Position numbers and translations under genes: made by a program. From positions 1 to 64,000 of IMG/VR virus record IMGVR_UViG_3300022689_000116: a stretch of 64,000 nucleotides of DNA; one strand, given 5' to 3'. The first letter of the stretch is position 1, and the number at the start of each line of letters is the position of its first letter. Under the pieces are notes generated by a model that saw only the letters and a program-made list of their open reading frames with translations, was not told where the DNA came from and searched no databases. This stretch comes from a virus. Positions 16,433 through 59,123 of this stretch are shown here, one piece after another.

Positions 16433-19400
16433 ATGGCAAATAAAAATACAATTCAGGAAATAGTTGCACCTGAAACAAGTGATCTTCTTAAAGAAGTTCA
16501 AAAATATAGCAATGTTAAACCAAACCCTATTGATAAAACAAAACCACTTACTTCTATAAATAGTGCAAAACAGCAATCTAAAATTGGAGATACAAAAATT
16601 TCTACAGAAGATTTAAACGTTATAGGTAAATATCTTAGTCCTTATGGTGGTATATATCCCGGAACTGATTTTAGAGAGAAAGCTGCACAAGTTCAAACTA
16701 CAGGTAATAAATGGTTTAATGGAGTTGTTAAATTCACAGGTAGAGTTGGAACATCTTTTCTAGAACCTTTTGTAGATATTGGATATGGTATTCCTTCTAT
16801 AATGGCTACTGGTAAATTTTCTGCTTTATATGACAATGATATAACTCAAGCTTTTGATGAGTTTAATAATCATCTTCAAAAACAATTTCCTAATTTTTAC
16901 ACTCATGCTGAAACTGATTCTAAAGCACTTAGTTTAAAGAATCTTACATCTGCTAATTTTTGGGCTGATAAAGTTTTAGGTGGTGCTGCTTTTACAGTTG
17001 GTACATTACTTAATGCTTATGCTACTGCTGGTATTGGAACTGCCCTTAGAGGCGGAGCTGCTTTAAAAGCTTTTAGAGCCGGTTTTAAAGAAATGAGTTT
17101 AGCTGCTGAAACAGAAAATGCTTTGAAAGCTATTAGTAGTAAAGCTGCTAGGGTTAGAACTGGAGATGCTATTCAAAATCTTGCCACAACTATTTTATCT
17201 GTTGCTGGAGAATCTGGTGTTGAAGCTAGGGATTTAGGTAACACACTTAAAGCTCAAATGGCTGATTATGTTAAACAAGGTCTTATTAGTCAAGAAGAAG
17301 CTAGTCGTCAAATTGAAAATGCTATGAATCTTGCTTTTGCAGCTAATGTTGCGATTGTTGGTACTTCTCAATTTATCCAATTTGGTAAACTTTATTCTAG
17401 AGGTTTTAAATCTGACAAACTTAATATATTCAAATTAGTTAAAGAAGGTGGTACATTTAAACCTACTTTACCCGAAACTGGTTTTGGTAAATTTGTAGCT
17501 AAATCAGCTGGTGGTAGAGCTATACTCAAAGATATACTTACTGAGAGTAAAGAAGAAGGTTTACAATATCTTACTCAAAAAACTTTAGAATATAAGTATG
17601 GTGCTGAAGTTTCTAAAGATATGACTGAATCTATTTCGCATGGTTTTAAAGAACTATTTGGAACTAAAGAAGGTATTGAAAATATGCTTATTGGTGCTAT
17701 ACTTGGTGGTGGTAGCCATTTAGGTAAAGCTGTAACTGGTAATGCAGAAAATCCTTATACTGCAAAAGTAAATAAAAGTAATGTTGTTGCTGATCTTGCT
17801 AATAGATATTTTTCAGATGATAATAATAAACTTAGGGATTTAGTTTCTAATGTTGGAGTATATACTGCTGCCAATGAACGTAAAGAATACTATCTTTCTA
17901 AAGATGATATTTTTAATTATAAAAATGAAGAATCGCAAGAGTTTGCTTCAATGGTTAAGAGTTTTGCTGATCTTGGTGCTATGGATGTTCTTTATGAACA
18001 AGTAGATGAAATAACTTCTATGAATGATGAAGAATATAATAAGATGTTTGGACAAGCCGAAGATGTTAAAGTTACTAAATCTAGAGAAGAACTATCTAGA
18101 GAGATTAAAGAAAAAGCTGAAGCTTTAGATCGTATAAATACTAATATAAATACTGCTTTTAACAATCATATACCAGCATATAAAAATAATTTATTTTATG
18201 TTTCAGCTATGATTGATGATGGTCGTAGACGTGAAGCTATTCTCAAAAATGAATTATCAGAAGTTACTGGTATTCAATATGAAGATTTTGCTAAGTTGAG
18301 AACTCAGAATTATAAAGATAGAGAACTAGCTAAAATTGAAAAGTCTAATAAGACTCCCGAAGAAAAACAAAAAGCTATTGATGAATTAGAAAGTCTTAAT
18401 AAAGAAACTTTAGATGATGCTTATAGTAAAGCTATCAATAATTGGATAACTGATAATAATCCTGACCTTACCGATACTGAAATAAAAACTCTTACTACTA
18501 AGTTAGATGATCTTACTAGATTACATGACAGACGACAAAACTTTATTGATACTTATAATTATATGGTATCAGAAAAAGGTATGGAAAATACTACTTTTGA
18601 AGGACTTTCAAAGAGTGCTGATAAAGATGCTCAAGAATCTATTAAAGAACTTCAAGCTTTACAAGAGAAGTTTCAGAAAGATATTAATGAAGGAAAACTC
18701 AATAAAAAAGAGATTGATAAAGCTATTATTGATGCTGAAGCTTTATATAAACTTAATGGTAGGGAATCTTTTAATAAATTAAAGAAAAATCTTACTAAAT
18801 TAAGAGATAACTATTATAATAAAAAGGGGAGTGACAATTCTTCCAATCCTACCGGGAAATCGAACAATACGAAAAATACGAAAGTTGAAGATACTTCTGA
18901 CATTAATGAAACTAATGATGATACATCTGTAGCTGAACCTACTCAAGAAGAAGTTGATCTTGAACAAGTTATGGCTGATACCGAGTTAGAAGATATTAAT
19001 GATGAAGTTATAGAAGAAGGTGATGTTAAAAATGTTAGTGAATTAAGAAATTCTAATCTTAGTCAAGATCAAGAAGGATTAATATTAGATGCTTTAGATG
19101 AAGCTAATAAACTTGAAGATACAGAAGGTGTTGATGAAGTTATAAAATCTCCTAAAAAGGTTAGTGGAGATCAAGCTAAGAAAGCTTTTATTCAACTATT
19201 TGATAGGCTTAGTCCTAATAGTATTTTCTCATGGAATCTTTCTAATAATATGCTTTATGATTTTGGAGCTATTATGGAAAAGATAAATGATGTTGCTGTT
19301 AAGAATGGTAAAGAACTTTCTCCTCAGGCTTTTCAAGTACTTCAAGGTTTTTATTTTGCATATGTTTATTCAACAGCTAAAGATCAAGCTAAGTATAAGA

Positions 19401-22400
19401 ATCCTATGTCTTATAAATATGCTGATTTAGAAAGTGCTGAAATAGCTCATCAAAATAGAGTTGCTGTAACTGTTCATGACGTTAATAAAAAATATACCAA
19501 AGATGTTGCTAAAGAAGATTTAGCAGATATGGAAACAAGACGTGTTGGTCGTGTTACAGAAAATGCTCATAGAACTGTTTCTGCTTTTAATAGAGCTTAT
19601 GAAAAAGTAAAAGGTGAGAATAAGTTTAGAGATTTAAACAATACTATTGTAAATCTTGCAGCTTTAGATTTTAATAAAGTTAATGTAGGAAGTACAATTA
19701 CTTTAAGAATACCTAAAAAGGTTGAACATACTGTTGATGGTATCCCTAAAGGAAAAGCTGAAATACTACAACGTGCTTTAAATAAAGAAAATCTTACTAA
19801 AGATGAATTAAGACAACTTACTATAGAAATGGTAGATGAAGATGGTAATACTATAGGCTATCTTCATACAGAAGAATGGGTTGATAATAAGTTTAAAATG
19901 ATTAAGGAAAATCATCCTGATCATTATAGTGATGAAAAGCTTCAAGAAGAAATGGATAATCTTCTTAGTATTAGAGCATCAGTTTATTTAAATGGTTCCG
20001 TAAAAACTACTGTAACTGGTCGTTCTAATGGTATTTTATTAAACTGGAAAAGTGATAATACAGATGCTGTTACAATTTCTGCTAAAACTGCTTTTCAAGA
20101 TGATAATCTTAAGTTCGGAATTGGTGATAGTGGTCGTGTTGAAATAGGTAATAATAGATCATCTAATGATATTGGTGAAGAACTTACTAATCCAGATAAG
20201 GTTGTAGATGGTATTACTTATGCTGTTTTACCAGTTAATAAAAATACAACTACTAATCAAGTTAAATATATATCTGTACCATTACAATCTATTAAAATTG
20301 GTAACCTTACGGATGAACAAAAACAAGCTAAGATTAAGAGTAGTATTGTAAATGCTATAAGGATATATATTACTAATGCTAATCCTGATGTAAAAGTAAA
20401 ACTTAGTGTTGAAGATCAAAATGTAGTTAAAGATTTAAAGAAGGCTGGTTATGATATTACAACTTCTACTGGATTAAATAATTATTTACAGAACTTTATT
20501 TATACTTTTAAAACTGTAGGTTTTAATTCAGAAGATAAAGCTGGAGAACTTCTTAGAACATTTCTTAAAAGTAAGAGTACTACAGATGTTGCAATTAAAG
20601 CCGGAACTAAGTATATAGAGTTTGGTAGTGGAGATGCTAATGGAGCAGGAGAAAACTATGTTGCAAAAATAACTAAAAAGGGGGTTGAATACTATATAGG
20701 TGGAGAACGTGTGAATCTATCTAAACAAGATAGTATTGATGAAGAAACTTTCTTTAAAGCATTGGGTGGTATAACTAATAAAGCTTATATTGCTAGTGAT
20801 AGTAAATTGATAAATAAGAAAGGTAAATTTAACCTTAATTATATTGTTGATGGGAAAGTTGAAACTAAAGAATATAAACAATATAATGATTATCTTAAAG
20901 AAAATTTTCTTACTGATATTTATGGTCATACAACTAAAGAAGGTAAAACTTATTATTCTATTCATCCTATAATCGAGTTTGATGATAGTTTTATCAAAGG
21001 TAAACAAAATACTAAACAAGTAGCAGATACTATAAGTGAAACAGAAGGTAAAGCAGAAAAAGAAGTTCGAGCTAAAGCTATGATTGAAAGAGCCATTACA
21101 GAAGTTATGAGTACTGGCGATATTATGGTTGGTGAAGAAACTTATACTCTCGAAGAAATATTACCTATTGGTAAACAAAGTACAGAAGGTGTTACTACTA
21201 TATATAAAGATAGTAAAGGAAAGAAAGTTAAAGTAACTGTTCCTATTACAGATATTGTAGATCAAAAGTATAGTAATAATGATATAGCTGATTTAATTTA
21301 TGCTAGGGTACGTACTGAAAGTAGCCCTGTAGAAAAGGAGATAACCAAAGAAACTCCTAGTGAACAAACAGGAGGTAAATTTAGTACTGATGAACTTGAT
21401 GATATAGCTTCTCAATTTGGAGAAACTAATAATACTAATGATGAAGTTATTAATGCTCCTATGCGAGTTGTTGATGATGAAATATTTAATCTTGAAGTTG
21501 ATTTAGGTATTCGTCATAATCCAAATGATACTAAACCTGTTTATAAACGTTGGTTACAAAGACAATATAAAGCGGTTCTTAAAAAAGCTATTGAACTTAA
21601 TTCTAAACTTAAAGATACCTCTTATAAGGTAAAGATTATTAAGATTGAGGGAGAGGTTGGAGATAACCGTGTTTATTTTGCTTTAAAAGCTGTTAGGAGA
21701 GTTGATGAACAAGTCATTAATTCTTTAATTAAAGAAAAAGATCTTTCTACTAATACTCTTAGACAGAATATTGATGGTACTCTATATATTGCAGACCTTA
21801 ATTTGGCTTTGCAAAATTCGACCATTGGCGACCTTAAAACAGCTATTATAAGACGTTTAAAAGAAGTTAGGGGTAACAGGTCATTAGAGAAACAGGTGCT
21901 TGAAACAAGCTTAAATGATGCTCTACAAGGCTATATTGACCTTAGAAATCAGTTCATAAGTGCAAAGAATCAAAGTACTGATAAAAACCGTATTGCACAG
22001 TATGATAAAACTATTACCGGATTAACAGATATTATAAATAATTTTGATACTCTTGCTAAGTTTGCAATTAACGAACTTGCTTCTATTAATTTATTAAGTG
22101 TTTCTACTAAAATTAAATTAGAAGGTGGTAAGATTAAAACTCAAGAGGTTGAAAAAACTATTGATAATAATATTTTAAATGAGAATGATGAAGATGATCC
22201 TGATACTGGTGTAGAAGATATGGATTCAAATGGTGAAGATACTGCTCATTTTGAAACTGAACATAGTATTAAAATAGATCATAAGAAAACTATTTCTAAA
22301 GAACTTAAACTATTTCTTAGTGATATTACTAATGATAAGATTGGCAGGACTATATTTGGAAAAGCTTTGCCTATGAGATTTGATACTGTTTATAATGATG

Positions 22401-25400
22401 TTTTAAATGCTTTATCAAATAAATTATTTACTGGTTATAAAACTTCTTTTGAAGGTATGTTATCTGAATTAGAAAAAGCTTCTGAACAAAAACCTTATTT
22501 AATGCAAGTTGTAGAAAAACTTAAAGAGGAAGCTAAGGATGATAAATCTAAAATTCCTGCACAATTTGAAAGACTTGTATTTAAACATAAATCTGAAATG
22601 TTTTATATAGGTTATTCTTATCGTAAGGATAATTCTAGTAACAATAATAAGAAATACAAAGATAATAAAAAGTATTATTACATTGTTCCAGCTAGAACTA
22701 ATAATCTATATAATGAACGTGTTCTTGTAGATAGTTGGATTAGTAATTTTAGAATGGGTCAATATACAACCGTTGATGATAATTATGCTGATTCTATTTT
22801 AAGTGCTGAAAAGTTTGGTAAGTTAAAGAAAGATTATTATAAAATTGCCGATGTTATTGATACTCAAAATACATTATATAAAAATGCTGTTGAAAATGAT
22901 CAATTTGAGAAAGCCGAAAGTCATATGCTTAAACTTAAACAAGCTATTAAAGATGCTTTTGGAGTAACTGGTATAATGTTATCTAATGAAACAGTTGATA
23001 TAATTGCTAACAATAAATTTAAGATTGGTAATAATACTGTTACAGTTGCTAATATGTTTAAAGTTGGTAATAAGAATGTTGCTCAAGCTGGTGGTAGATT
23101 TACTAGATTTGTTAAGAATTTAAAGTTTGACAAACCTCTTAGTACATTTAATATATTTTCATCTTCTTTTGTCGAAAGTATTGCAGCTTTAGAATCTAAT
23201 TATAACAATGTTGATTTTAGTAGTAATTACTTAGATCAAGAAGGTAAGTCTATTAGTTCTAATAGTAACTATAAATTCTTAGTTGAAAGAGTTATTACTT
23301 TGTTGGATAATCCAGTTGTTGATAATAATACTAAAGAAACTATTTGGGAGAAACTTGATAATATTCCTTTCATTCGTAATTCAAGATGGTTTAATGATCT
23401 TAAAGAAGGTAAACTAAATAGAGATAATTTTCATGTAACTTACTCTGACGCTATTGTTCCTTTTAATAAAAGTGATAAAGCAGTTAAAATTAAAAATGCT
23501 CCTGAAGCAGATATTGAAAATTATAAACTAGGTCATTTCTTTAATATGAGAAGTGAACCTGAACAAGAACTTGTTAGGTTTATATATCCTACTCTTTCAG
23601 ATGGTGGTACTGTAATGGAAGTTACAGCTATGGCACAAGATTTTGAACTTGATGACAATAATCAGGTTTCTCAAAATACTATTAGTAGTATAGTAGATCA
23701 AATAGTAATGCCGGAAGTTGATAGGATTAAAGATGTTAAAGATAAGACTATTGATATTGAAGGTTACAATGAAGGTTCTAAATTATTTTTATTCTTCCCC
23801 GAACTTAATAAAAAATCTAATGGTTTATTTGATAATGATGGTAATTTAAAACTTGATGTTAAAGGTGAACTCCCATTGGAATCTGTTAAAACTATTAGAA
23901 AAGTTGTTAAAAAATATATTAATAATCTTGTTGATAATAAGATTAACGAATGGATTGATTTTGGTATTCTAAGAGAATCCCCTAAAGGTATTAGAAGTGA
24001 AATTCTAAACTATGATAAAGATAATCTAATAACTGAAACCCAATTAGAAAACGTTAAAAGGTGGAATACAACTAATGGATTATATGTTGATAGCGAACAA
24101 GTTAAATATAAAGATAGCACTGGTAAAGAAGTTGAAATAAGACCAGAAGATGTTATATTTGTATATGATACTGATGCTAGTGGAAGTTTACGAAATATAA
24201 CTTCTGCGGTAGCTAAAAAACGCTATGGTGCTAAAGATGGTTATGTTAATAGAGTTGTAGGTAATTCATTTGGTATTGTTACACTTGCAGATGAAAATGC
24301 CGATATTAAAGATATGTATCTTTCGAGGAATGAAGTTCGCGAAGCTTTTCAAAAGGTTGTAGATGCTGCCAATAAGAATCCTGATAAATATTTTGTATTA
24401 CCTACTTTTAGAAATTCATTTAAACAGTTTGGTTATAATACTTTTGAATATGCTCAAATATTGAGTACTTTAGCTTTACCTGAAAATATAGTTATAAATG
24501 AAAAGTTTGCTAAAACTATAAGTAAAGCTAGAACTAGTTTATTAGAAACTACTCCCGAAGAACTTGAAAGTAGAAAAGAGAAGTCTAAAGCATATATTTA
24601 TAAAGATCATATCTTACATTTTGTTGATAAGAATTATTCTGATAGAATGGAGATTATGCTCGAAGGTACTAATAAGAATAGAATTAAGCAAATGGCTCTC
24701 GATTATGTACTTAATTATATGGTAGCTAATACTAATATTCATCAACTTATAATTGGCGATCCTGCTTTATACTTTAAAAAGGCTAATGAAAATTTATATT
24801 CTCCAGAGAATGCAATAGCTACATTTGATAATGTTATAAAACGTCTTGCAGCTGATCGCGCTCCTGGTGAACACATGGCTAATAGTTTTGCTGTAGATGA
24901 AGTTTATAAACAAGTATTTGTATTAGATAGAAAGAAAAAACTTGCTTCACTAGCTAATACTTATCTTAAATCATTAGGTTTTGATTATAGTGAAATTAAT
25001 GGTACGGATGCTCAAGAAATGACTACTTTTAAAGAGGATATGTATGTTAAATATAGAAATGGTATTATAAGTAAAGCTTTATATAATAGACTATTTAATA
25101 AAAATGGTATTGTTACTAAAGAGTTAAATCGTAAAGATTCTAATGGCAAACCAAATCCTAACCATTATTATATGGGAGCTATTTATGGAACTCTTAGTAA
25201 AGAAGATTCTGATCTTTATAAAGAATTTAAAGAAAATGTTAATCAACCAGTTAAACCTGTTTATGTTAATAATCTTGCTCAAACTATAGATGGACACAAT
25301 GTTGATAGACGTATGTATATTAAATCTTCATCGTTTGCTTTAACACCTTCTCTGACTATGAATAGAGAACTTGATAAGGTACGTATTTATATGGAATCTA

Positions 25401-28400
25401 ATGGCATTGATCGTCTTGCATTTGGTTCTGCTGTTAAAGTTGGTAATTTTGCAACAAATCCACGAATATTTAATAATGATGGTACTATAACTATTCCTGA
25501 TGATTTTGATGACTATACTATGGAACTTCCTAGAAGTGGTTTTAGAATCCAGCAAGATAATCCATTTGATGTTAATAAAAATAAGGTTAAATTTGGAGTT
25601 CAAGAATCAGCCCTTCTATTTAATAATCTTTTACATATTGATAAATTTAAAGATTTAAGCACACGATTTAATGATACTTATTCTAAACTTTATCAATTAG
25701 AATTAGGTAAGCTTTATACTCAACTTGGTATATTAGAAGAAGGTCAAAAACTTAGTGATCTAAATGAAACTATATTAGATACTACATTTATAAATGATAA
25801 AATTAATCTTGAGAAACTTTCAGCACTTGTTAAAGAAGAAGCTTCTGCTAGAGGTTATAGTCGTAATGATATTGTTGGACTAGGACTTAAAGATGGTGAG
25901 TTTTTTATTCGTCTAGGTTTTCATACTAGAGCTATTAATTTAGAATCTTTATTTAATTCTATAATTAATAATAGAGTTATTTCTCATAAGATTACAGGTA
26001 AGAGTTTTATACTTGGTACAGAAGAAGGTTTTAAACATCTTGAAGATAAAAAATTAAGAGATAATATTGTCTATACTTCTGATATAGTTGATGATCTTAA
26101 ACCTATGGGTTTTACAGATAAAGATGGAAACTATATTGATATAAAAGATGTTGATAAGGATAGTAAGTTTCAACCTGCTCAGATATTTATACCTTCTATA
26201 CTAAGAGATAACAACGGTAAAAAGATAAATCTATTTGAAAAGGATATAGAAACTAAATCATACAAATATTTAATGATTGTTAAACGCAATGGTCAAAATA
26301 AACTTGTGCTTAGAAAGAATATGGTTGATTCTGATCTTTTTAAAGCTTTTGGTTTCCGTATTCCAACACAAGGTCATAATAGTATGACTTCAATAGAAAT
26401 AGCAGGTTTTCTTCCAGAAGATGCAGGTGATCTAATCATTGCTCCTAGAGATTTTGTTAAACAAATGGGTTCTGACTTTGATGTTGATAAACTTTACAGT
26501 TATATGTATAATATGGAAGTTAATGAAGATGGAAAGATTAAGAAAGTTAAATCTGGAAATGATAGTAAAAAGGCTTTACAAAATCAATTATTAGATATTC
26601 ATTTTGGAGTTTTAAATGATCCTAATGTAGATGTTCAAAAACAAATATTTGAACCTCTTGAATTTGGTATTCTAAAAATGGAACAAGGTGAATTTATAAG
26701 TTCTGATAAAGATGTTGAGAAAGCTGTTAATAATATGTATAATGGTAAGTTAGCAGACTATATTGATGATCTTAATAGTACAAGGGATAAAATGTTTACT
26801 GGAATAGATGATATGTTCCAAAGACAAAGCTTTCTTGAAGGTCGTGATGGTGGTGTTGGTATTGGTAAGTTTAGTTTAGATAGTACATTCAATGCTTTAT
26901 TACAACAAACTAAAGTTGAAATTGGTAAAGAAACAGTTAAAGGATTTAAACCAGATTCTGTTACACTTGGTAATAAAGTTTCCAATCACATTTACGATGC
27001 TAAATCTAATAAAATTGGAGATAAAGAATTTAATAAATCTCAAGTTATTTCTTGGTATCAATCAGCTTCTGTTGATAATGCTAAAGAAAAATTATTATAT
27101 AAACTTAATATCAATGATGTAACTTATGGTGCTATAACTTATCTAAATCAATTAGGATTTAATGAAGAAATTATATGGTTAATCAATCAACCTATTATTA
27201 GAGATTATGTAAGAGAATTACAAATTGTAAATAGTTCTATAAATTCTGTAGATGATTATATAAATAGAGCTACTTTAAAAGTTTATGAAAAGTATAATCG
27301 TGATCGAGTTTTTAGTAAAGAAGATGGAACTGACAAACTTACAAAAACTTATAATAATCCTGGTAGATATGGTATTGGCGAATTACATAAACTTCTTAAA
27401 CAAAATAAAGAAGGTATAAAAGACAATACTGCTGATGAATTTAACAGAAGTCAATTAGGTATATTTAAGATATTTAAAGACTTTAGTAAAAAAGGAGATG
27501 CTATTGCTGATTTACAATCTGTATTAAATAGTAACAGTAAAGGTATGGGTAAAGATGTAGCTACAGCTTATATCAAAACTAAAGCTATTTTAGAAATAGA
27601 TGATAATGTTAGTTTTTACAATCCTTCACAACTTATTGGAACTAAGATAAATGAAATTAAATATCGTAAGTTAGAACCTGAACAACAAAACCAATATTTC
27701 AAAATAGAAGATAATGTTTATATTAAACCTACCACTATTGCAGGTATGGCTTCTATATTTGGTACTATTGCAGGTACTAAATTATGGTCTAGTATCTTCC
27801 CTTATAACAGTCCTATAATAGGTCGTGAAATAGATAAGATACATGAAATTTCTAATTTTAGGTCTAAGCATATTTCTACAGAAGCTAAAGATATTAAACA
27901 TTTATGGACTGAGTTAAAGAAATTTATCAATAGTAAGACTATTTCTAACATAAGTACTGAAAGTCCAAATGAGATTCGTAATCGTCTTATGTTAGATAGA
28001 TTTGATGGGGATAATAATCATACTCATTATTCATTAGCTTCTATTATAAAAGCTGGAAAAGAAAATGGTACATTGACAAGTAATGATCTTGTCAATACTT
28101 TAATACTTGAACCTAAAAAGAATAGGAATAGTTTTGCACTTGTTAAGTATAATACTAATGGTAAGAATATAGATGAATCTAATCTTATAAATGGATTTAT
28201 GCAACTTATTCATACTAATAAAAAGATTGGAGATTTCAATGGGGTTGAATATACAACTCGTAATCTTGCTGCTGATCTTTTACTCTATAGTCTTACTGCT
28301 GGTGGAGTTCAACAATTTGGAAGGTTTGCTAAATATGTTCCTATGGAATATCTTGATAAGGTTGGTTATACAGAAGCTATCAATAGTTTAGATTTTACTA

Positions 28401-29923
28401 ACCCTTATATAGCTGGTTATACAGAAATGAATGAAGATCATAATAATATATCTGAATTTGTAACTCAATATTTTCAGCATTTTCCAACTAAGACTCAAAA
28501 AGTAAATCTTAGTAATTCATTTATGTTTTATGATAACTCTTTAGATTTAGATGATCTTAAACAAATTCAATTAGATAAACTCAACATTGAAGATTCTGTA
28601 TTAGTAGAAGGAGTTCCTGTTAGTAAGGAAATGGAACAAGCAGAAAATAGACGTCTTGCTTTTATTAGAAGAATATATAGAACTTATGATGAAAATGATG
28701 ATTCTAATAATGAATTAAAAGAGTTCTTCCATGTTCAACATCCTGATACTAATAAAGTTTATCTATTTAGACTTATTAATAAAAAGGATGGTACTTATGC
28801 TAAAATTCCAACTTTAGGTCAGCAAGGTATTTCTGAATATAATTATGATTCTATAAATGACAACAATTATCAGAATAGTGTACTTAACAATAATAATGAT
28901 AAACTTATTACATTCCGTGATCCTACATTACATGATAAGAAAGCTAGTTATTTAAGTCAATCTGATCTTACCGATAACCGTTCCTTAATAGACAATTATA
29001 ACATAAATAGTTTAAATGCTAAAACAATATTAAGAAATATCATTAAGCACAAACAAGATAGAATTAATAGGAATAAGCTTCAAACTAATGATATGAATAA
29101 TCAATTAGTATTTAATTCTTTCATAGCTGAAAAGATATTAGATCGTATTGATAACTTCGATATTAAAATTGTTATAGATAATACAATTAAAGCTTCAGGA
29201 CAAATTACAAGTACTGATAATTATGCTAATAATATAACTATTAAATTAAACTTACAAGATATAAATTCTTATAAGAATAATCAAGTTGTTGATACTGTTA
29301 GTATTGAAGATGCTAGTATTAATCCTGAACTTTATACTTTTGAACGTGTTTTCTTACATGAAGGACTTCATGCTATTACGCTTAATTATCTAAAGACAAC
29401 TGAGGAGAGCAATCTTTCTATTCTACAGGGAAATTGGGCAAAGGCTAGAACTTATGCTCAAAACAATGGTGTCAATATTAAAGAACTTGATAGACTTGTT
29501 AATACACCCGGAGCTTCTCTTCCCGCTGATATGTATAAATATTATGGACTTGCTCAAACTAAGGATGGTAAGCCTAGACTAGATGAGTTTATAACAGGTG
29601 TATTTACTGATGCTGAATTTAGGAATTTTTTAAGTGGTATTGATAGTGATACTAAATCAGTATTAGATAAGATACTTGAGTTTATTGTTAATGCTCTAAA
29701 CGAGATAGGTTTTAATATTAAAGAAAATACTTTAGCTGAAAGTTCATTGCTTGAAATTATTAATGTTATTGAGGAGTCAGATTTCCCGGTAAAGAAGAAA
29801 AATGTGAATGTCGAGAATGATAGTATTAATAGTGTTCTTAAAGCATTTGGTGAAGAAAATTTAGATAATATTATAAATGATCTTATTAAAAATAATCAAG
29901 TTAGTATTGCTTGTAAACTTTAA
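16433..29923 (+). CDS. giant virion-associated RNA polymerase polyprotein (double-psi barrel) with N-terminal hydrophobic segments and C-terminal zincin motif
   Basis: GFRIPTQ and MGSDFDVDKL (DxDxD at 26474-26488) as in the phi14:2 gp66 family; FLHEGLHAI HExxH at 29357-29371. Confidence 0.9.
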   Translation: MANKNTIQEIVAPETSDLLKEVQKYSNVKPNPIDKTKPLTSINSAKQQSKIGDTKISTEDLNVIGKYLSPYGGIYPGTDFREKAAQVQTTGNKWFNGVVKFTGRVGTSFLEPFVDIGYGIPSIMATGKFSALYDNDITQAFDEFNNHLQKQFPNFYTHAETDSKALSLKNLTSANFWADKVLGGAAFTVGTLLNAYATAGIGTALRGGAALKAFRAGFKEMSLAAETENALKAISSKAARVRTGDAIQNLATTILSVAGESGVEARDLGNTLKAQMADYVKQGLISQEEASRQIENAMNLAFAANVAIVGTSQFIQFGKLYSRGFKSDKLNIFKLVKEGGTFKPTLPETGFGKFVAKSAGGRAILKDILTESKEEGLQYLTQKTLEYKYGAEVSKDMTESISHGFKELFGTKEGIENMLIGAILGGGSHLGKAVTGNAENPYTAKVNKSNVVADLANRYFSDDNNKLRDLVSNVGVYTAANERKEYYLSKDDIFNYKNEESQEFASMVKSFADLGAMDVLYEQVDEITSMNDEEYNKMFGQAEDVKVTKSREELSREIKEKAEALDRINTNINTAFNNHIPAYKNNLFYVSAMIDDGRRREAILKNELSEVTGIQYEDFAKLRTQNYKDRELAKIEKSNKTPEEKQKAIDELESLNKETLDDAYSKAINNWITDNNPDLTDTEIKTLTTKLDDLTRLHDRRQNFIDTYNYMVSEKGMENTTFEGLSKSADKDAQESIKELQALQEKFQKDINEGKLNKKEIDKAIIDAEALYKLNGRESFNKLKKNLTKLRDNYYNKKGSDNSSNPTGKSNNTKNTKVEDTSDINETNDDTSVAEPTQEEVDLEQVMADTELEDINDEVIEEGDVKNVSELRNSNLSQDQEGLILDALDEANKLEDTEGVDEVIKSPKKVSGDQAKKAFIQLFDRLSPNSIFSWNLSNNMLYDFGAIMEKINDVAVKNGKELSPQAFQVLQGFYFAYVYSTAKDQAKYKNPMSYKYADLESAEIAHQNRVAVTVHDVNKKYTKDVAKEDLADMETRRVGRVTENAHRTVSAFNRAYEKVKGENKFRDLNNTIVNLAALDFNKVNVGSTITLRIPKKVEHTVDGIPKGKAEILQRALNKENLTKDELRQLTIEMVDEDGNTIGYLHTEEWVDNKFKMIKENHPDHYSDEKLQEEMDNLLSIRASVYLNGSVKTTVTGRSNGILLNWKSDNTDAVTISAKTAFQDDNLKFGIGDSGRVEIGNNRSSNDIGEELTNPDKVVDGITYAVLPVNKNTTTNQVKYISVPLQSIKIGNLTDEQKQAKIKSSIVNAIRIYITNANPDVKVKLSVEDQNVVKDLKKAGYDITTSTGLNNYLQNFIYTFKTVGFNSEDKAGELLRTFLKSKSTTDVAIKAGTKYIEFGSGDANGAGENYVAKITKKGVEYYIGGERVNLSKQDSIDEETFFKALGGITNKAYIASDSKLINKKGKFNLNYIVDGKVETKEYKQYNDYLKENFLTDIYGHTTKEGKTYYSIHPIIEFDDSFIKGKQNTKQVADTISETEGKAEKEVRAKAMIERAITEVMSTGDIMVGEETYTLEEILPIGKQSTEGVTTIYKDSKGKKVKVTVPITDIVDQKYSNNDIADLIYARVRTESSPVEKEITKETPSEQTGGKFSTDELDDIASQFGETNNTNDEVINAPMRVVDDEIFNLEVDLGIRHNPNDTKPVYKRWLQRQYKAVLKKAIELNSKLKDTSYKVKIIKIEGEVGDNRVYFALKAVRRVDEQVINSLIKEKDLSTNTLRQNIDGTLYIADLNLALQNSTIGDLKTAIIRRLKEVRGNRSLEKQVLETSLNDALQGYIDLRNQFISAKNQSTDKNRIAQYDKTITGLTDIINNFDTLAKFAINELASINLLSVSTKIKLEGGKIKTQEVEKTIDNNILNENDEDDPDTGVEDMDSNGEDTAHFETEHSIKIDHKKTISKELKLFLSDITNDKIGRTIFGKALPMRFDTVYNDVLNALSNKLFTGYKTSFEGMLSELEKASEQKPYLMQVVEKLKEEAKDDKSKIPAQFERLVFKHKSEMFYIGYSYRKDNSSNNNKKYKDNKKYYYIVPARTNNLYNERVLVDSWISNFRMGQYTTVDDNYADSILSAEKFGKLKKDYYKIADVIDTQNTLYKNAVENDQFEKAESHMLKLKQAIKDAFGVTGIMLSNETVDIIANNKFKIGNNTVTVANMFKVGNKNVAQAGGRFTRFVKNLKFDKPLSTFNIFSSSFVESIAALESNYNNVDFSSNYLDQEGKSISSNSNYKFLVERVITLLDNPVVDNNTKETIWEKLDNIPFIRNSRWFNDLKEGKLNRDNFHVTYSDAIVPFNKSDKAVKIKNAPEADIENYKLGHFFNMRSEPEQELVRFIYPTLSDGGTVMEVTAMAQDFELDDNNQVSQNTISSIVDQIVMPEVDRIKDVKDKTIDIEGYNEGSKLFLFFPELNKKSNGLFDNDGNLKLDVKGELPLESVKTIRKVVKKYINNLVDNKINEWIDFGILRESPKGIRSEILNYDKDNLITETQLENVKRWNTTNGLYVDSEQVKYKDSTGKEVEIRPEDVIFVYDTDASGSLRNITSAVAKKRYGAKDGYVNRVVGNSFGIVTLADENADIKDMYLSRNEVREAFQKVVDAANKNPDKYFVLPTFRNSFKQFGYNTFEYAQILSTLALPENIVINEKFAKTISKARTSLLETTPEELESRKEKSKAYIYKDHILHFVDKNYSDRMEIMLEGTNKNRIKQMALDYVLNYMVANTNIHQLIIGDPALYFKKANENLYSPENAIATFDNVIKRLAADRAPGEHMANSFAVDEVYKQVFVLDRKKKLASLANTYLKSLGFDYSEINGTDAQEMTTFKEDMYVKYRNGIISKALYNRLFNKNGIVTKELNRKDSNGKPNPNHYYMGAIYGTLSKEDSDLYKEFKENVNQPVKPVYVNNLAQTIDGHNVDRRMYIKSSSFALTPSLTMNRELDKVRIYMESNGIDRLAFGSAVKVGNFATNPRIFNNDGTITIPDDFDDYTMELPRSGFRIQQDNPFDVNKNKVKFGVQESALLFNNLLHIDKFKDLSTRFNDTYSKLYQLELGKLYTQLGILEEGQKLSDLNETILDTTFINDKINLEKLSALVKEEASARGYSRNDIVGLGLKDGEFFIRLGFHTRAINLESLFNSIINNRVISHKITGKSFILGTEEGFKHLEDKKLRDNIVYTSDIVDDLKPMGFTDKDGNYIDIKDVDKDSKFQPAQIFIPSILRDNNGKKINLFEKDIETKSYKYLMIVKRNGQNKLVLRKNMVDSDLFKAFGFRIPTQGHNSMTSIEIAGFLPEDAGDLIIAPRDFVKQMGSDFDVDKLYSYMYNMEVNEDGKIKKVKSGNDSKKALQNQLLDIHFGVLNDPNVDVQKQIFEPLEFGILKMEQGEFISSDKDVEKAVNNMYNGKLADYIDDLNSTRDKMFTGIDDMFQRQSFLEGRDGGVGIGKFSLDSTFNALLQQTKVEIGKETVKGFKPDSVTLGNKVSNHIYDAKSNKIGDKEFNKSQVISWYQSASVDNAKEKLLYKLNINDVTYGAITYLNQLGFNEEIIWLINQPIIRDYVRELQIVNSSINSVDDYINRATLKVYEKYNRDRVFSKEDGTDKLTKTYNNPGRYGIGELHKLLKQNKEGIKDNTADEFNRSQLGIFKIFKDFSKKGDAIADLQSVLNSNSKGMGKDVATAYIKTKAILEIDDNVSFYNPSQLIGTKINEIKYRKLEPEQQNQYFKIEDNVYIKPTTIAGMASIFGTIAGTKLWSSIFPYNSPIIGREIDKIHEISNFRSKHISTEAKDIKHLWTELKKFINSKTISNISTESPNEIRNRLMLDRFDGDNNHTHYSLASIIKAGKENGTLTSNDLVNTLILEPKKNRNSFALVKYNTNGKNIDESNLINGFMQLIHTNKKIGDFNGVEYTTRNLAADLLLYSLTAGGVQQFGRFAKYVPMEYLDKVGYTEAINSLDFTNPYIAGYTEMNEDHNNISEFVTQYFQHFPTKTQKVNLSNSFMFYDNSLDLDDLKQIQLDKLNIEDSVLVEGVPVSKEMEQAENRRLAFIRRIYRTYDENDDSNNELKEFFHVQHPDTNKVYLFRLINKKDGTYAKIPTLGQQGISEYNYDSINDNNYQNSVLNNNNDKLITFRDPTLHDKKASYLSQSDLTDNRSLIDNYNINSLNAKTILRNIIKHKQDRINRNKLQTNDMNNQLVFNSFIAEKILDRIDNFDIKIVIDNTIKASGQITSTDNYANNITIKLNLQDINSYKNNQVVDTVSIEDASINPELYTFERVFLHEGLHAITLNYLKTTEESNLSILQGNWAKARTYAQNNGVNIKELDRLVNTPGASLPADMYKYYGLAQTKDGKPRLDEFITGVFTDAEFRNFLSGIDSDTKSVLDKILEFIVNALNEIGFNIKENTLAESSLLEIINVIEESDFPVKKKNVNVENDSINSVLKAFGEENLDNIINDLIKNNQVSIACKL

Positions 29924-29935
29924 ATAATTAAAGAT

Positions 29936-42775: not shown

Positions 42776-43387
42776 TTACCTCTTAGCTTCTGACCTGTCA
42801 AGTGAGATTACAAACAAATCAACAGCCTCAGGACTTTCAGTTCCATTAGGTGCTTCAACTTGAACAGGCTCTTTACTTACAGAATAAACTTGAATTTCGT
42901 CATTATTTCCACCAAGTTCAACCCAGTTAACAGCATCGCTACCTTCAAGAATAGAACCAATACCGACATTACCGGAAACAGAAGCAAGTTTAAAACCAGC
43001 AAGTTTATCGGTATATTGAGTCAAAGGATTACCTTCTTCATCAACTTCACCAGCTTCAATTAAAGCTTCTTTTTCAGCTTTAGAAAGCCTTTTAATAACT
43101 TGCTCAACTTTACCATCTTTACCATAAATAAGATTACCTTTAGCAATACCCCAAGTTACAGGAGTATCTTCATCAGTTTCTCCTGCAAGAATAGCTTTAC
43201 TAACAGCGTCAGCATTATTCATAAACATAAGATGATCACCAGGAGCAACACCAAGAAGTCTTGAAGTAGCTTCATTGATCTTAACTTTACCGTTAGTAGT
43301 TGTTAAATACAACTCAGGTTCAGTAGTTTTAGCAGCTTTTTTTCCAGTTGATTGAACACTAAATGCAAATTTTACAAAATTTTCCAT
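42776..43387 (-). CDS. hypothetical protein with AbrB-like swapped-hairpin signature; paralog of 57262-57765
   Basis: GKVKINEATSRLLGVAPGDHLMF; shared N-terminal F[SA]VQSTGKK. Confidence 0.6.
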   Translation of the reverse strand: MENFVKFAFSVQSTGKKAAKTTEPELYLTTTNGKVKINEATSRLLGVAPGDHLMFMNNADAVSKAILAGETDEDTPVTWGIAKGNLIYGKDGKVEQVIKRLSKAEKEALIEAGEVDEEGNPLTQYTDKLAGFKLASVSGNVGIGSILEGSDAVNWVELGGNNDEIQVYSVSKEPVQVEAPNGTESPEAVDLFVISLDRSEAKR

Positions 43388-44490: not shown

Positions 44491-45777
44491 TTAATAAATC
44501 TTTAATTTATCAATATCATCTTTATCGAACTTCTTAACAAATGTATTATAAGCTTTGTAACGATCATTATAGTTATCATCATCCTTTGTATTAAGTAATG
44601 ATAGATTAATGATATTTACGTTACTGTTAAATATTAGTTTACTTCTTTTATTAAGTTCTAAATAAGATAAACATTTTGGAGATGTATATATTAATCCATC
44701 AATATCTTCAATAGAAGTATCTTTAACAAGACTATTAGTAATACAAATACATCTAATATCGTGATTATTAAAAGCTCTTATATAAGTAGAGTTTACAGTT
44801 TTTGAACCATGACCTTTAGGCTGACCCTTTTTAGCACCAGATTTATAAAGTATAAGATTTCCATCATCATCAGAAAGATAAACGTTCTTATGATCATTGT
44901 GGATAGCGTTACAAATATCACCTTTCTTATTTAAAAAGTTAGAAATATCATCAGCCATCTTACTATTCTTACAAACAATAACAAATCTTCTAGTTTTAAG
45001 ATAAGAAACAATACTATTAACGGTTAGAATTTTAACAAAATGTTCATCAAGGTAATGATTACGCATAGCAATGAGATCATGATACATCTTAGCTTTCTCA
45101 TAAATAGCATTAGGATTAAAACCCTCTGATAAATCTTTATAATATTGAATACTAACATCTAAATTTTCATTCCAACCTGAAGCTTTAGCAAATTCTCTAC
45201 GAAAATTGTCCGCAGTAATACCACTTTGCATATCACCCCTGTAACATTTAACAATAGTATCAAAATCACCATTAAACATTTCAAAAATATCTTTCATTTT
45301 ATTAGTAATTTCTTCATACTTTGCAAATTCATTATTTGAAAGTTCAATAGATAAATGTATTTCATTATGTTTACTATCTATAGATCGTTTACTTTTAATA
45401 GCATCCGATGTAAGACGTGGAAACTTATCCAAATCATTATCATAGTTAAACTTAGAAACTGTAGCAAACATATATTTGAATACAATCCTCATTAAAACCA
45501 GATTTATAACATTATCTGCAATATCTCCAGCATCAATTATGATTAAAACATCAACTATACGTTTGTCCATAGTAACTTGATCAGCGGAATGTACAGGATA
45601 TGAAAACTTTTTAGAATAATATTCTACCATTTTAGTCTTTGCTACAACTATTATCTTTAAGTTTGCACTTAATAGACCTGAAATAAGCCTAGATAAAATA
45701 GCATCATTATCTTCACGATCTTCATATTTATATACACCTTTTCCACCGACATATTTCCAATTTTTTAATATGTCCAT
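44491..45777 (-). CDS. degenerate SF2 helicase-like protein
   Basis: HelicC-like C-domain (FNNHDIRCICITNSLVKDTSIEDIDGLI); no intact Walker A or DExD. Confidence 0.6.
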   Translation of the reverse strand: MDILKNWKYVGGKGVYKYEDREDNDAILSRLISGLLSANLKIIVVAKTKMVEYYSKKFSYPVHSADQVTMDKRIVDVLIIIDAGDIADNVINLVLMRIVFKYMFATVSKFNYDNDLDKFPRLTSDAIKSKRSIDSKHNEIHLSIELSNNEFAKYEEITNKMKDIFEMFNGDFDTIVKCYRGDMQSGITADNFRREFAKASGWNENLDVSIQYYKDLSEGFNPNAIYEKAKMYHDLIAMRNHYLDEHFVKILTVNSIVSYLKTRRFVIVCKNSKMADDISNFLNKKGDICNAIHNDHKNVYLSDDDGNLILYKSGAKKGQPKGHGSKTVNSTYIRAFNNHDIRCICITNSLVKDTSIEDIDGLIYTSPKCLSYLELNKRSKLIFNSNVNIINLSLLNTKDDDNYNDRYKAYNTFVKKFDKDDIDKLKIY

Positions 45778-45833
45778 AATTATTAATTTTAATATTTAAA
45801 TGATTATTAGTAATAATATTACTCATTGTAAGG

Positions 45834-45898
45834 TTTCCCGGTAGGATTAGAAAGTGATGTACGCTGACTGTCGCATACTTTCTATCTCTACAGGGAAA
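45834..45898. repeat. long imperfect inverted repeat made of two copies of the TACMGGGAAA motif
   Basis: TTTCCCGGTAGGATTAGAAAGTGATG ... CATACTTTCTATCTCTACAGGGAAA. Confidence 0.85.
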
Positions 45899-45904
45899 TT
45901 GATC

Positions 45905-52868: not shown

Positions 52869-53636
52869 TTAAATTTTAAGTTTATTATACACAAAAGGAT
52901 TCTTTTTATAACTTTTAAATTCACTTAAACTCATTGAAGAAATATCATTCATTTTTTCAATCAATTCATTATAACTAAGCTTTAATTTATTATGACCATT
53001 TATAGTTAACTCAAGGTTACTATCCATAATTTCTAATTCTTCTCTAAGACCTGTTATTAGATCAACTTGAACTTTACGAATTTTATCAATATTTTCTATT
53101 TCAGCATCTTTAGCTTTAATGGTATGCTCAAGTTTATCAATTATAACTTGTTGATCATATCCATCTTTAACTACTAATTGAGCAGTTTCATTACTAATTT
53201 TTAATTCTTTTCTAAGACTAGTTATTAAATTAACTAGAACTTTATATCTTTGATCAATGATTTTTATTTCTTCTTGAAGTTTATAATTATCTTCCATATA
53301 AGTATTAATTATAGCACACTTATCATCAATAATACGTCTAAGATTATCAATAATAGCATCTTTATCATCTTCGGGATTCTCTTTTTTACCGGGAGGTTGA
53401 ACATGGATTATATCTTCATTTTTACAAGGAGTCTGAGCTTTTAGTTCCTTTAGTTTACTACGAGCTTCTTTAAGTTGTTCTTTAAACTTAAATTGTGTAT
53501 CTATAATAGTCTTTTGAGTATAAGGATTATCACCAGTAATTAAATCTCTTTCAGTTATTTTAATACACCTTTTAAGATGTGCTATTTTACTTTCAATATC
53601 ATGAATAGTAGTGTTATTTTTATTGTTTTCCATCAC
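52869..53636 (-). CDS. coiled-coil protein
   Basis: Heptad-rich, with an internal repeat LITSLRKELKI / LITGLREELEI. Confidence 0.7.
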   Translation of the reverse strand: MMENNKNNTTIHDIESKIAHLKRCIKITERDLITGDNPYTQKTIIDTQFKFKEQLKEARSKLKELKAQTPCKNEDIIHVQPPGKKENPEDDKDAIIDNLRRIIDDKCAIINTYMEDNYKLQEEIKIIDQRYKVLVNLITSLRKELKISNETAQLVVKDGYDQQVIIDKLEHTIKAKDAEIENIDKIRKVQVDLITGLREELEIMDSNLELTINGHNKLKLSYNELIEKMNDISSMSLSEFKSYKKNPFVYNKLKI

Positions 53637-55700: not shown

Positions 55701-55703
55701 AAC

Positions 55704-56806: not shown

Positions 56807-56867
56807 TTCATTATTATTTATATTAATACTCGAATAACTTCTGAACTAAAACTATAATCAATATTAT

Positions 56868-56909
56868 AAAAAAAGCAATAGCTCCAGATTTAACTCCAGA
56901 ACTATTGCT
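56868..56909 (-). terminator. intrinsic terminator
   Basis: AGCAATAG...CTATTGCT stem followed by a T run on the - strand. Confidence 0.7.
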
Positions 56910-56921
56910 AATGTTATCCAA

Positions 56922-57122
56922 TCAAGATTTAATCTTATTGACCACCATAACGAAAAACGCTATTGCTGTTAAGCAAACTACTAATAGTACACTTACTATT
57001 TGTAACTGATGTAAAACTAAACCACTTGAAACCCCTTTCACCAGGATAACATTTATTATTATGAACGTAAACGTTATTATTAACGTTAATACTAATTTCA
57101 AAATACTTCTAAACTCTTTCAT
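56922..57122 (-). CDS. small two-TM membrane protein
   Basis: Two hydrophobic helices; followed by a terminator. Confidence 0.65.
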   Translation of the reverse strand: MKEFRSILKLVLTLIITFTFIIINVILVKGVSSGLVLHQLQIVSVLLVVCLTAIAFFVMVVNKIKS

Positions 57123-57223
57123 AATATTAATTATTGGTTAACCTAAATCATTATGATTTAACGCACGACTTTCACGCCTTAATAACCTATAATTATTTGA
57201 ACTAAGAACATTATTAAACATAT

Positions 57224-57256
57224 AAAAAAGGTAGCACCATTACTGATACTACCTTT
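57224..57256 (-). terminator. intrinsic terminator with GNRA loop
   Basis: - strand AAAGGTAGTATCA-GTAA-TGGTGCTACCTTT followed by TTT. Confidence 0.8.
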
Positions 57257-57261
57257 ATTAT

Positions 57262-57765
57262 TTATTCTTTTTCTCCTGTGTTACGCTGTTTATCTTCAGT
57301 TTCTTCAAATCCCAAAATATAAACAGTAACTTCACTGCCAAAAACTTCTTTCTTAAAACTAGCAATCTCTCCAGCTTCATTTTTAGCAGGTAAAAAAACA
57401 AGATGTTTATCATCTATTTCAATACCCATTTCTTCAACCAATTTACGAGTAGTAGTACAGATATTACCATCTGTAAATTCATTAGTTTTAGAAATTTTTG
57501 AGCTTTTTGGATATTCAATTTCACCTTCTTCATTTTCAACAGCAACAGAAGCAAAAATACCAATAAAAACATTTTCTTCCTCTTCGTCATAAACAGGTGC
57601 AACCCCATAAGAAATATGCTCATTAGCACCTAACAATTTCTTTAAATTGTCGCTAATTTTCATTCGATTATTTGCACTTAAAAAACGCAAACTTTCACGA
57701 GTATCAACATTACTCGTTTTCTTTCCAGTACTTTGTACAGCAAACATTTTTGAATAATCTTTCAT
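57262..57765 (-). CDS. hypothetical protein; paralog of 42776-43387
   Basis: MFAVQSTGKK..NRMKISDNLKKLLG; ATG at 57765 (or 57777) preferred to the TTG start in the track. Confidence 0.75.
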   Translation of the reverse strand: MKDYSKMFAVQSTGKKTSNVDTRESLRFLSANNRMKISDNLKKLLGANEHISYGVAPVYDEEEENVFIGIFASVAVENEEGEIEYPKSSKISKTNEFTDGNICTTTRKLVEEMGIEIDDKHLVFLPAKNEAGEIASFKKEVFGSEVTVYILGFEETEDKQRNTGEKE

Positions 57766-58291
57766 AACTTTAATCATTTTAATTAATATTAGTAATAAAA
57801 TTGTAAATTCCACGCACAAAAATATCTATTTGAATAGTACTATTTTTTGTATGGGGATACTTAATACTTATAACTAAGCAGTTGTTTTTTGATCAGGTGG
57901 TTCACTCCCGCACTCATATACATCATTTTTCCCGTTTGCCCTATCTCGTCTACTCCCATCTACTCTACCTCTCGCTCTCCTTCACACTCTATCTCCAGTC
58001 CTATTACAAAAACTATAATACTTCCAAATCATTATTAAAATGAAATCCTTTAACAAAACTATCAACACGTATATAATAAAAAAAGGGTACGGGGTTATTA
58101 AAATCACTATAAGAAGCCCGGGTATAAATATGGAAACTATTAGAGAAAAGAAACCCCTAATAACATTTCTATCATTAGGGGAATCTCATGGAAAACAAAC
58201 ACCAAGTAATCAACCAGAAAAAGAAGCAGGAAAAGAAGCAGAAAAAGTAATACGAGTTACAGTAATATGAGTAATAAAATCCTCGCCAGTA

Positions 58292-58654: not shown

Positions 58655-58759
58655 AATTTTAAATTTTAATTTGTTTATAATTGATTTTATAACTTGTTTA
58701 AGTATTGTAACTAATTGTACGATTTCCCTGTAGATTAGAAGGATATGAAACGGTTTTGA

Positions 58760-58939
58760 TTAACTGTTATTAACACTAACTAAATCACCAACTTTCACAT
58801 ATTTATAATCATGTTGTATAATAGTTCCATCTTCTTTTAAAATAACAGCATTAAGATTATCATTAAAATTAACAAAACTATGAAGGTAGCCATTATTAGC
58901 TTCACCTTGTTTATAATAAATTACTTTAAGCATTTTCAT
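58760..58939 (-). CDS. small hypothetical protein
   Basis: ATG right after the upstream stop. Confidence 0.55.
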   Translation of the reverse strand: MKMLKVIYYKQGEANNGYLHSFVNFNDNLNAVILKEDGTIIQHDYKYVKVGDLVSVNNS

Positions 58940-58940
58940 A

Positions 58941-59123
58941 TTAATAAATAATAGAAGTTTTAGAAGATTGATAATGTGTAGTATAAGTATTATCAAGAAT
59001 ATCTATAAAACTATCCATGAGTGGTTTGGAATCTCCTTTTTTACAGGGAAATTGAACAATACGTTCAACACGTTTATTAGTAGTATTACGTTTTGATTTA
59101 ATAATATTAAAAGAACCTTTCAT
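58941..59123 (-). CDS. small hypothetical protein
   Basis: 60-aa packed ORF. Confidence 0.5.
   Translation of the reverse strand: MKGSFNIIKSKRNTTNKRVERIVQFPCKKGDSKPLMDSFIDILDNTYTTHYQSSKTSIIY

Follow-up and report, generated by a model that had tools for sequence, protein, structure and literature searches.

The DNA window described here comprises 64,000 nucleotides, bases 1-64000 of an 80,709-bp linear viral contig (IMG/VR record IMGVR_UViG_3300022689_000116, rated 85% complete; G000 below), and our subject is a short DNA word with the core TAC[A/C]GGGAAA that recurs in genes and between them on both strands. G000 is a divergent crAss-like phage with a gene for a giant virion RNA polymerase (vRNAP). 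This open reading frame (ORF), 16433-29923, encodes 4496 aa, carries the DFDVD catalytic motif of crAss vRNAPs at residue 3348 and matches phrog_16227. In the region 16433-33862 (+) the vRNAP is fused in one ORF, the equivalent in crAss002 and p-crAssphage being split into proteins of ~2000 and ~4100 aa, and a 1308-aa ORF follows downstream, an order also found in the related genome G001. Between 34 and 59 kb a minus-strand block encodes PolB, primase, ligase, helicase and a deoxynucleoside monophosphate (dNMP) kinase.

The G000 PolB is 33-35% identical to those of crAss002, cr107_1, Rudgehvirus jaberico and p-crAssphage, and by its sequence the G000 lineage is separate from the Intestiviridae. 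Its nearest PolB relatives, P0002 and P0003, are 50-51% identical. The nearest complete relative that we read, G001, is an 88.6-kb IMG/VR genome with terminal repeats, and its PolB is 42% identical in an alignment-based scan. A single-protein scan of IMG/VR for relatives gave no match and a tRNA search found none. Five word-carrying genomes are compared below: G000, G001 and, from GenBank, crAss002, p-crAssphage and R. jaberico. No other viruses of the human gut are as abundant as the crAss-like phages, but the start of their transcription and replication is not yet understood and no promoter has so far been defined for their virion RNA polymerase.

The word in G000

An earlier note on this DNA, made from its letters, had listed eight copies of the core. 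We found all eight (18850+, 29424+, 29782-, 36997-, 45834-, 45889+, 58723- and 59042+), and the flanks agree exactly as described, with TACCGGGAAATCGAACAATACG at 18850 against TACAGGGAAATTGAACAATACG at 59042 and an identical AATCCTACCGGGAAA at 18845+ and 45834-. A ninth exact copy lies outside the window at 78978+. The note had put the chance expectation well below one copy, and the mean over 100 dinucleotide shuffles was indeed 0.18 (maximum 1, none reached 8). Against an order-2 Markov background, in an unbiased test made without prior knowledge, the word ranked first among the over-represented 8-, 9- and 10-mers of G000, and TCTACAGGGA occurred 6 times where 0.04 were expected. We also shuffled synonymous codons within 70 genes, as the note had proposed. 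TACMGGGRA was present in coding sequence 6 times compared with 0.63 after shuffling and YTACNGGG 16 times compared with 3.6, and for each 0 of 500 shuffles was as high. The word is therefore real, and since its copies occupy several reading frames and both orientations and exceed this codon-aware null, it is the DNA, rather than the proteins, that is under selection, as had been supposed.

Further sites were sought with a 28-nt position matrix built from 11 seed sites, with the reversed genome as control. Seed sites left out in turn scored 20-32 bits, and the matrix separates sites at 20-36 bits from a control maximum of 9.8 bits. It brings the G000 total to ~17 sites, of which the window contains 14 and the rest of the contig 3, with 9 on the plus strand and 8 on the minus strand; the additions include 6476- (TATAGGGAAT), 16742-, 53387+ (with 53423+) and 70142-. 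Partial copies suspected in the earlier note were recovered by the matrix at 4932+, 21331- and 40598+, while one near 45238 was not confirmed. The consensus, cTTTCTAwTC-TACm-GGGAAA-TyGaACAAT, consists of a CT-rich tract, TAC, one variable base, a G-run and TyGaACAAT; "GC-rich", as the motif had been called, fits the core only, the upstream part being a pyrimidine tract. Thirteen of the 17 sites lie in ORFs and 8 of the 17 are antisense to the ORF that contains them, including 59042+ in a doubtful 60-aa ORF. Non-coding DNA is just 5.4% of G000 yet holds 4 of the 17 sites, a ~4-fold intergenic enrichment.

The sites of the window are given here from left to right, with matrix scores in bits. A sense copy in ORF 4879-5256 (4918-4945, +, ataatccttgattcTACAGGGGATtctt, 28.2) is followed by one with a TAT core, antisense in ORF 5891-6799 (6463-6490, -, tcttcttttcTATAGGGAATctga, 24.8). 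The weakest accepted site, which scores only a little over the control maximum, is antisense and close to the 5' end of the vRNAP gene (16729-16756, -, ttccaactcTACCTGTGAA, 12.2). The same gene holds a sense copy (18836-18863, +, aattcttccaatccTACCGGGAAAtcga, 32.9), a degenerate antisense copy (21318-21345, -, tctccttttcTACAGGGCTA, 19.4) and a convergent pair near its end, sense 491 nt before the stop (29410-29437, +, caatctttctattcTACAGGGAAAttgg, 34.4) and antisense 132 nt before it (29778-29805, -, tttttcttcttTACCGGGAAAtctg, 30.7; the site 29791-). In the minus-strand block one copy is in sense in the dNMP kinase gene 36829-37461 (36993-37020, -, atcattgctttTACAGGGAAAtcgt, 28.1) and a degenerate one is antisense in ORF 40208-40693 (40584-40611, +, catttctttttcTACAGGGAGA, 16.9). 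Directly past PolB stand two intergenic copies back to back. The first (45830-45857, -, cactttctaatccTACCGGGAAAcctt, 30.1; the site 45843-) points with the genes, 62 nt past the PolB stop and 58 nt before ORF 44491-45777, and the second (45875-45902, +, atactttctatctcTACAGGGAAAttga, 30.3) points the other way. With their TAC triplets 46 bp apart, they form a 65-bp imperfect inverted repeat (45834-45898) whose folding energy as single-stranded DNA is -13.4 kcal/mol (z = -4.45 compared with shuffles). A degenerate copy antisense in ORF 52869-53636 (53373-53400, +, gattctctttttTACCGGGAGGttga, 14.0) has a weaker one (53423, +, 12.4) 36 nt beyond it. The best copy is intergenic and in sense (58719-58746, -, atatccttctaatcTACAGGGAAAtcgt, 35.8; the site 58732-), and the last (59028-59055, +, ggaatctcctttttTACAGGGAAAttga, 30.8) faces the plus-strand gene block that starts at 59719. 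Where the two gene blocks meet, these two copies form a divergent pair.

The copy at 58732- heads a compact unit, being followed by ORF 58654-58292 and then a strong intrinsic terminator at 58181-58154. Within 56874-58181 (-) this and two more strong terminators, at 57256-57227 and 56909-56874, split the start of the replication block into short units, and the word precedes the first of those units only.

Dialects of the word in other phages

The word is conserved as a family, and the expectation that it is kept in relatives is borne out by distinct dialects in distant ones. In each of the other four genomes the dialect is the top over-represented k-mer. G001 has CTACRGGGGAATCTA at 11 sites, that is CTAC(A/G)GGGGAATCTA after cTTCCCTCTTy. 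The dialect of crAss002 is CTCCTyTAYGGGGGAA (29 sites), that of p-crAssphage is CCATCCTCYACGGGGrGT, or CCATCCTCYACGGGG(G/A)GT (31 sites), and that of R. jaberico is TCCTyTACAGGGGwGwTTACAnCAAT (28 sites). When the five consensus lines are aligned on the YAY triplet, the G000 line (..ttc.atTc before the triplet, TACaGGGAAAt.g..ca from the triplet on) helps to show which parts are invariant: pyrimidines, then YAY, one free base and GGG(G). The G000 tail TyGaACAAT is similar to TTACAnCAAT of R. jaberico, and the tail is common to these two only.

Related words are present in dozens of human-gut contigs, among metagenome loci fetched by way of their PolB. In L058, L068 and their sister loci (contigs of IMG/VR 3300045988), from a lineage with ~32% PolB identity, 3-4 copies of a GC-rich dialect, GGGCGTGCAACCTCCTC-TCC-CAC-C-GGGGA-GCGGAGCG, are present per 22 kb; this suggests that the family may reach beyond the Intestiviridae on that side too. 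No comparable word was found in G002, G003, G005 and G006, which are crAss-like genomes with giant vRNAP genes. An enrichment of ACTCCT in G003 and G006 was set aside as a reflection of Thr-Pro codon usage.

The word is specific to the phages: for its crAss002 core, TTAYGGGGG, 25 Bacteroidales genomes gave no count above the control. An exact-word scan of IMG/VR gave only single chance matches. The crAss002 16-mer matched at least 120 unrelated bacterial genomes once each; ~550 chance matches are estimated for it in 596 Gb, so the bacterial matches carry no signal. Our literature search found no published description or printing of the word, or of such a signal, in crAss phages. The G000 motif is a lineage dialect of an apparently undescribed DNA signal shared with the Intestiviridae crAss phages. 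Its dialects span the range from the prototype p-crAssphage to the distant AT-rich G000 lineage, which widens the signal beyond the Intestiviridae, and they provide a sequence signature by which these phages can be recognised and classified.

Many Intestiviridae copies, mostly intergenic, have an additional element directly after them. NAGCG pentamer arrays (for example AGCGGAGCGAAGCGAAGCGG) or GC hairpins flanked by AGCG...AGCGGG follow the copies at 6026, 28083, 28177, 44959, 58733, 93673 and 95869 of p-crAssphage (L235/L236) and at 4214, 47844 and 86218 of crAss002 (L213/L214). In p-crAssphage CTACTAAT comes next. The G000 copies are without arrays, GC hairpins or a following element.

Within genes the word is neutral in orientation, with ~39 sense and 40 antisense copies. 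Sense copies encode benign loop peptides (SSTGG, xFTGx, LYGG or PLRG) and antisense copies encode xP(V/I)(E/K)(E/D), for example xPVED or xPIKE, or TPRRG. In crAss002, intergenic and antisense copies have TAT and sense in-gene copies have TAC, because a protein can accommodate ACG (Thr) or CGG (Arg) at places where it cannot take ATG (Met) or TGG (Trp). Since coding explains the TAC, the unconstrained optimum is TATGGGGGAA. In a PolB alignment the copies of G001, crAss002 and p-crAssphage stand at different columns, which in crAss002 and G001 are gap-free except for one extra residue in G001. This indicates that copies were made by point mutation where the protein tolerates it and were not inserted. 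Among crAss002-like loci the in-gene copies are conserved, but just modestly more than the coding flanks.

These observations bear on the idea that the word acts as RNA, in the form of a hairpin, a terminator or a site of processing, or else is a mobile mini-element of the MITE (miniature inverted-repeat transposable element) or REP (repetitive extragenic palindromic) kind. The pyrimidine arm and G-run of the Intestiviridae word can pair if G-U is allowed, as in CUCCU-UUAY-GGGGG, and paired copies form long hairpins. Against an RNA element, half of the in-gene copies are antisense, the G000 copies are by inspection unfolded, and the copies are without a following U-tract. An Rfam search gave no real family, its miRNA-precursor matches reflecting the long palindrome. 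Against a mobile element, the protein alignments show the copies not to be insertions, and it is by point mutation that their positions come and go. Orientation and the absence of insertions thus largely refute both forms of the idea, and we give it hardly any credence.

Spacing and orientation on the two strands

On each strand taken by itself the copies are evenly spaced. The coefficient of variation (CV) of the gaps was 0.24-0.46 on every strand of the five genomes, compared with ~1 for random placement. For the 17 sites of G000 it was 0.33 (p = 0.003) and 0.28 (p = 0.0013) on the two strands. The corresponding p values were 1e-4 and 0.002 in crAss002, 0.0012 and <5e-5 in p-crAssphage, 0.009 and 0.05 in G001, and <5e-5 and 0.0017 in R. 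jaberico, which serves as a replication as it was tested once the per-strand idea had been formed. When both strands were pooled the spacing was not regular (CV ~0.7), since a plus copy can stand right beside a minus copy. Along the genome, the two orientations tend to alternate (22/27 in R. jaberico, p = 0.0016; 21/30 in p-crAssphage, p = 0.019). A regular distance of ~3.5 kb from a minus site to the next plus site was observed in crAss002 and was not repeated in the other genomes.

Between genes the picture is one of enrichment and direction. By a rough estimate the intergenic enrichment is ~3- to 6-fold in crAss002 (7/29 sites) and p-crAssphage (11/31). By our own count, ~14 unpaired intergenic copies point along the gene direction and 2-3 against it. 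Back-to-back pairs are palindromes of 65-125 bp. A divergent pair marks the block junction in G001 (63860-/63971+), p-crAssphage (95751-/95869+) and R. jaberico (85907-/86019+), as it does in G000; in crAss002 no such pair was seen where the gene blocks diverge.

The earlier note had read the motif as a binding site for a phage protein in genome organisation, packaging, ejection, replication or transcription. So broad a claim could hardly fail, and the even per-strand spacing narrows it to a strand-specific process. The spacing also bears on one particular form of it, in which a DNA-binding protein with sequence specificity docks at the copies to organise, package or regulate the genome and their orientation would be of little matter. 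An asymmetric site of 16-30 bp in many copies would suit such a protein, as would the 1:1 orientation in genes and the intergenic enrichment, and the alternation of orientation could simply avoid direct repeats. However, orientation-blind sites should be even when pooled, and here evenness is found on each strand and not in the pool.

No candidate binder was found either. The HU-like and AbrB-like proteins that the earlier note had proposed as readers gained no supporting family or PDB match. ORF 5260-5916 (+) encodes tail ring protein 2 (Pfam CrAss_Ring_2, E 2e-18), which we take to be the protein labelled IHF/HU-like in older crAss annotations. The products of 60440-60748 and 57262-57819 had no Pfam, PHROG or PDB match. 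Between RecT-like and SSB-like genes, 42776-43387 (-) encodes a 203-aa homologue of p-crAssphage gp19 and crAss002 gp60; by eye the N-terminus (LLGVAPGDHLMF) resembles AbrB/SpoVT, and no significant Pfam, PHROG or PDB match was obtained. It looks like a conserved protein of the crAss replication module, with no assigned function. It had seemed lineage-specific and was dropped as a reader of the word when weak homologues were found in word-less relatives, so that its distribution does not track the motif. On this evidence we consider docking sites quite unlikely.

Strand-specific words placed evenly on both strands would also be the ideal layout for Chi, and the words could be Chi-like or uptake-like signals read by host AddAB/RecBCD that shield the phage DNA from degradation on either side. 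Like Chi, they are strand-specific, orientation-dependent and useful on both strands at regular distances. In addition, many intergenic copies of p-crAssphage and crAss002 have arrays of AGCGG or GAAGCGG after them, which we take to be the Chi sequences of Bacillus and Staphylococcus. Chi is, however, 5-8 nt long, set by the host and abundant in host genomes, while the word has 16-30 nt, far more than any known Chi, and differs between phages of closely related Bacteroides hosts. Host enrichment was assessed with the crAss002 dialect: in none of 25 Bacteroidales genomes, with 4-61 copies each, did its core TTAYGGGGG exceed the reversed control. A Chi-like role is thus very improbable in our estimation.

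The main rival to the reading that we prefer is a site-specific interruption of one strand: a nickase of the phage would cut the strand that bears the word, in mature DNA or during replication, as happens in T5, phiKMV-like and tf/LUZ24-like phages. The nick words described for these phages are 5'-TACT/RTGMC-3' in tf (14 sites), CGACxxxxxCCTA/CTCCGG in phiKMV and R/GCGCRGG in T5 (PMC3517423). They too are short, asymmetric and strand-specific, lie in genes, are similarly placed in relatives and drift between lineages; word and reader appear to co-evolve, and even in T5 their function is unknown (PMC3517423). All word-carrying genomes encode a DNA ligase, and even spacing on each strand suits a strand-specific event. 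Described nicks, however, are always on one strand only and unevenly spread (PMC3517423), whereas the words here are equal on both strands and evenly spaced on each. Back-to-back copies 30-50 bp apart would place nicks in opposite strands close together. We found no gene for a nickase that is confined to the lineages with the word, and nicking leaves the gene-direction bias of unpaired intergenic copies unexplained. We consider nicking unlikely, if less so than docking.

Taken together, the layout most likely reflects a strand-specific, orientation-dependent event that must take place at intervals of about 6-9 kb along both strands, independently of the genes, and whose reader co-evolves with the phage. 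A word so evenly set on each strand, and kept even in essential genes, points to an undescribed strand-specific step in the handling of phage DNA.

Candidate functions and comparison with known signals

Our preferred reading, which we hold tentatively and at somewhat under an even chance, is that the word may be a start site at which a phage enzyme begins RNA or primer synthesis in a strand-specific manner. This enzyme would probably be encoded by the phage, change its specificity from lineage to lineage and read the word on one strand. RNA chain synthesis would then begin at the word, most likely by the vRNAP or the phage primase, either at the G-run or, if the pyrimidine tract is the template, on that tract. 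Both strands would require such starts at regular intervals, for instance so that DNA replication is primed along the whole genome, and free intergenic copies, which point with the genes, may also act as promoters. We infer both the start-site role and the identity of the enzyme. Such a start site would account for the T7-like look of the core and the gene-wise direction of free copies, and likewise for the divergently paired copies where gene blocks meet and for the unit behind 58732-.

The T7 initiation region reads TATAGGGAGA, and the G000 core resembles it, as in TATAGGGAAT at 6476- and TACAGGGAGA at 40598+. It would also fit the alternative that the words are ordinary gene promoters (early and vRNAP-dependent, or used by host RNA polymerase with a phage factor) with gene expression as their sole role. 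The sense bias between genes, the divergent junction pairs and the terminator-ended unit would fit, as would the scarcity of host-type promoters: the Bacteroidota promoter TTTG..TAnnTTTG is not enriched genome-wide in G000 (9 versus 9 in the control). Its sole convincing intergenic instance is at 79043+ (outside the window), 70 nt before ORF 79113 and directly past 78978+. Some G000 copies have a -35-like TTGAACA past the G-run and, by inspection, no consistent -10. Against promoters as the only role, about half of the copies are antisense in genes and were created there by selection, the spacing tracks the strand and not the genes, and other units of the early region are without a word. Moreover, no T7-like RNA polymerase (Pfam RNA_pol PF00940) was detected in G000 or G001, a weak negative as the control genomes were silent too, and none is annotated in crAss002, p-crAssphage or R. 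jaberico. Promoters with no other role are, in our view, also rather improbable.

Several observations weigh against a start site as well. The word-less G002, G003, G005 and G006 carry a giant vRNAP with a DFDxD motif too. Of these, G003 and G006 have a homologous primase, and phmmer found none in G002 or G005. Neither enzyme's presence therefore predicts the word, and it is partly because word-less relatives have the polymerase, and two of four a homologous primase, that our confidence in the start site is no higher. The antisense half of the in-gene copies and a spacing that ignores genes are unexpected for gene promoters. DnaG-type primases normally need just trinucleotides. Single G000 copies form no stable hairpin (3-4 inconsistent pairs, by inspection), unlike classical single-strand initiation signals. 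Neither GC nor AT skew shows a step where the sites lie (pooled 0.017 +/- 0.011). Finally, the early vRNAP transcripts of phage phi14:2 have no common upstream motif (bioRxiv 10.1101/2020.03.07.982082).

A more far-reaching version of the start-site reading, which we put forward as a long shot, joins both roles. The words would form a grid of start sites on both strands at which RNAs made by the injected vRNAP (or the primase) prime bidirectional replication from many origins, and they would double as promoters when intergenic. T4 and T7 promoters can likewise double as replication origins. If this were true, a combined promoter and origin grid without a described counterpart, and with it the recognition sequence of the crAss virion polymerase, would have been found. 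The word marks exact places where RNA 5' ends, primers or nicks can be sought in crAss002 and R. jaberico, both of which are culturable.

The closest counterpart of the G000 word is that of the Intestiviridae phages p-crAssphage, crAss002 and R. jaberico. Both have the same build, occupy both strands in tens of copies, lie in genes in several frames and are evenly spaced per strand, and both have a divergent pair at the block junction and a copy near the PolB 3' end. The G000 word differs in being AT-richer, with GGGAAA instead of GGGGG, in being without the G-U hairpin and in being less frequent, with ~17 copies in 81 kb and a per-strand gap of ~9 kb compared with ~6 kb.

Among promoter words, those of the T7 group (T7, T3, SP6, K11) are alike in length and placement. 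They are words of 20-25 bp (23 bp for class II/III promoters), with many copies per genome and some in upstream genes, and their 3' part is TATA-GGGAGA where the word here has TACA-GGGAAA. T7 promoters, however, all point with the genes, whereas half of the in-gene copies here are antisense and both strands are served equally. P23-45's vRNAP and its nvRNAP are two-barrel phage RNA polymerases with strongly conserved dispersed promoter words (bioRxiv 10.1101/2022.12.01.518664); such words are likewise phage-specific, and crAss phages carry a polymerase of this kind. In phi14:2 the early transcripts share no motif, and the middle promoters are tripartite and sigma70-like, mostly intergenic and sense-oriented (bioRxiv 10.1101/2020.03.07.982082). 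With 13 of 17 G000 sites in ORFs and 8 antisense, we rejected identity of the word with middle promoters of that type.

Strand-specific primer starts are also known, from the origin of phage G4 and from ssiA/ssiB of RSF1010. These occur once or twice per replicon and require stable hairpins. The word is present 17-31 times per genome; single G000 copies have no stable hairpin and only the back-to-back pair folds, while Intestiviridae copies pair only by way of G-T/G-U pairs. In its geometry, the inverted arrangement of RSF1010, with one start per strand, resembles the back-to-back pairs described here.

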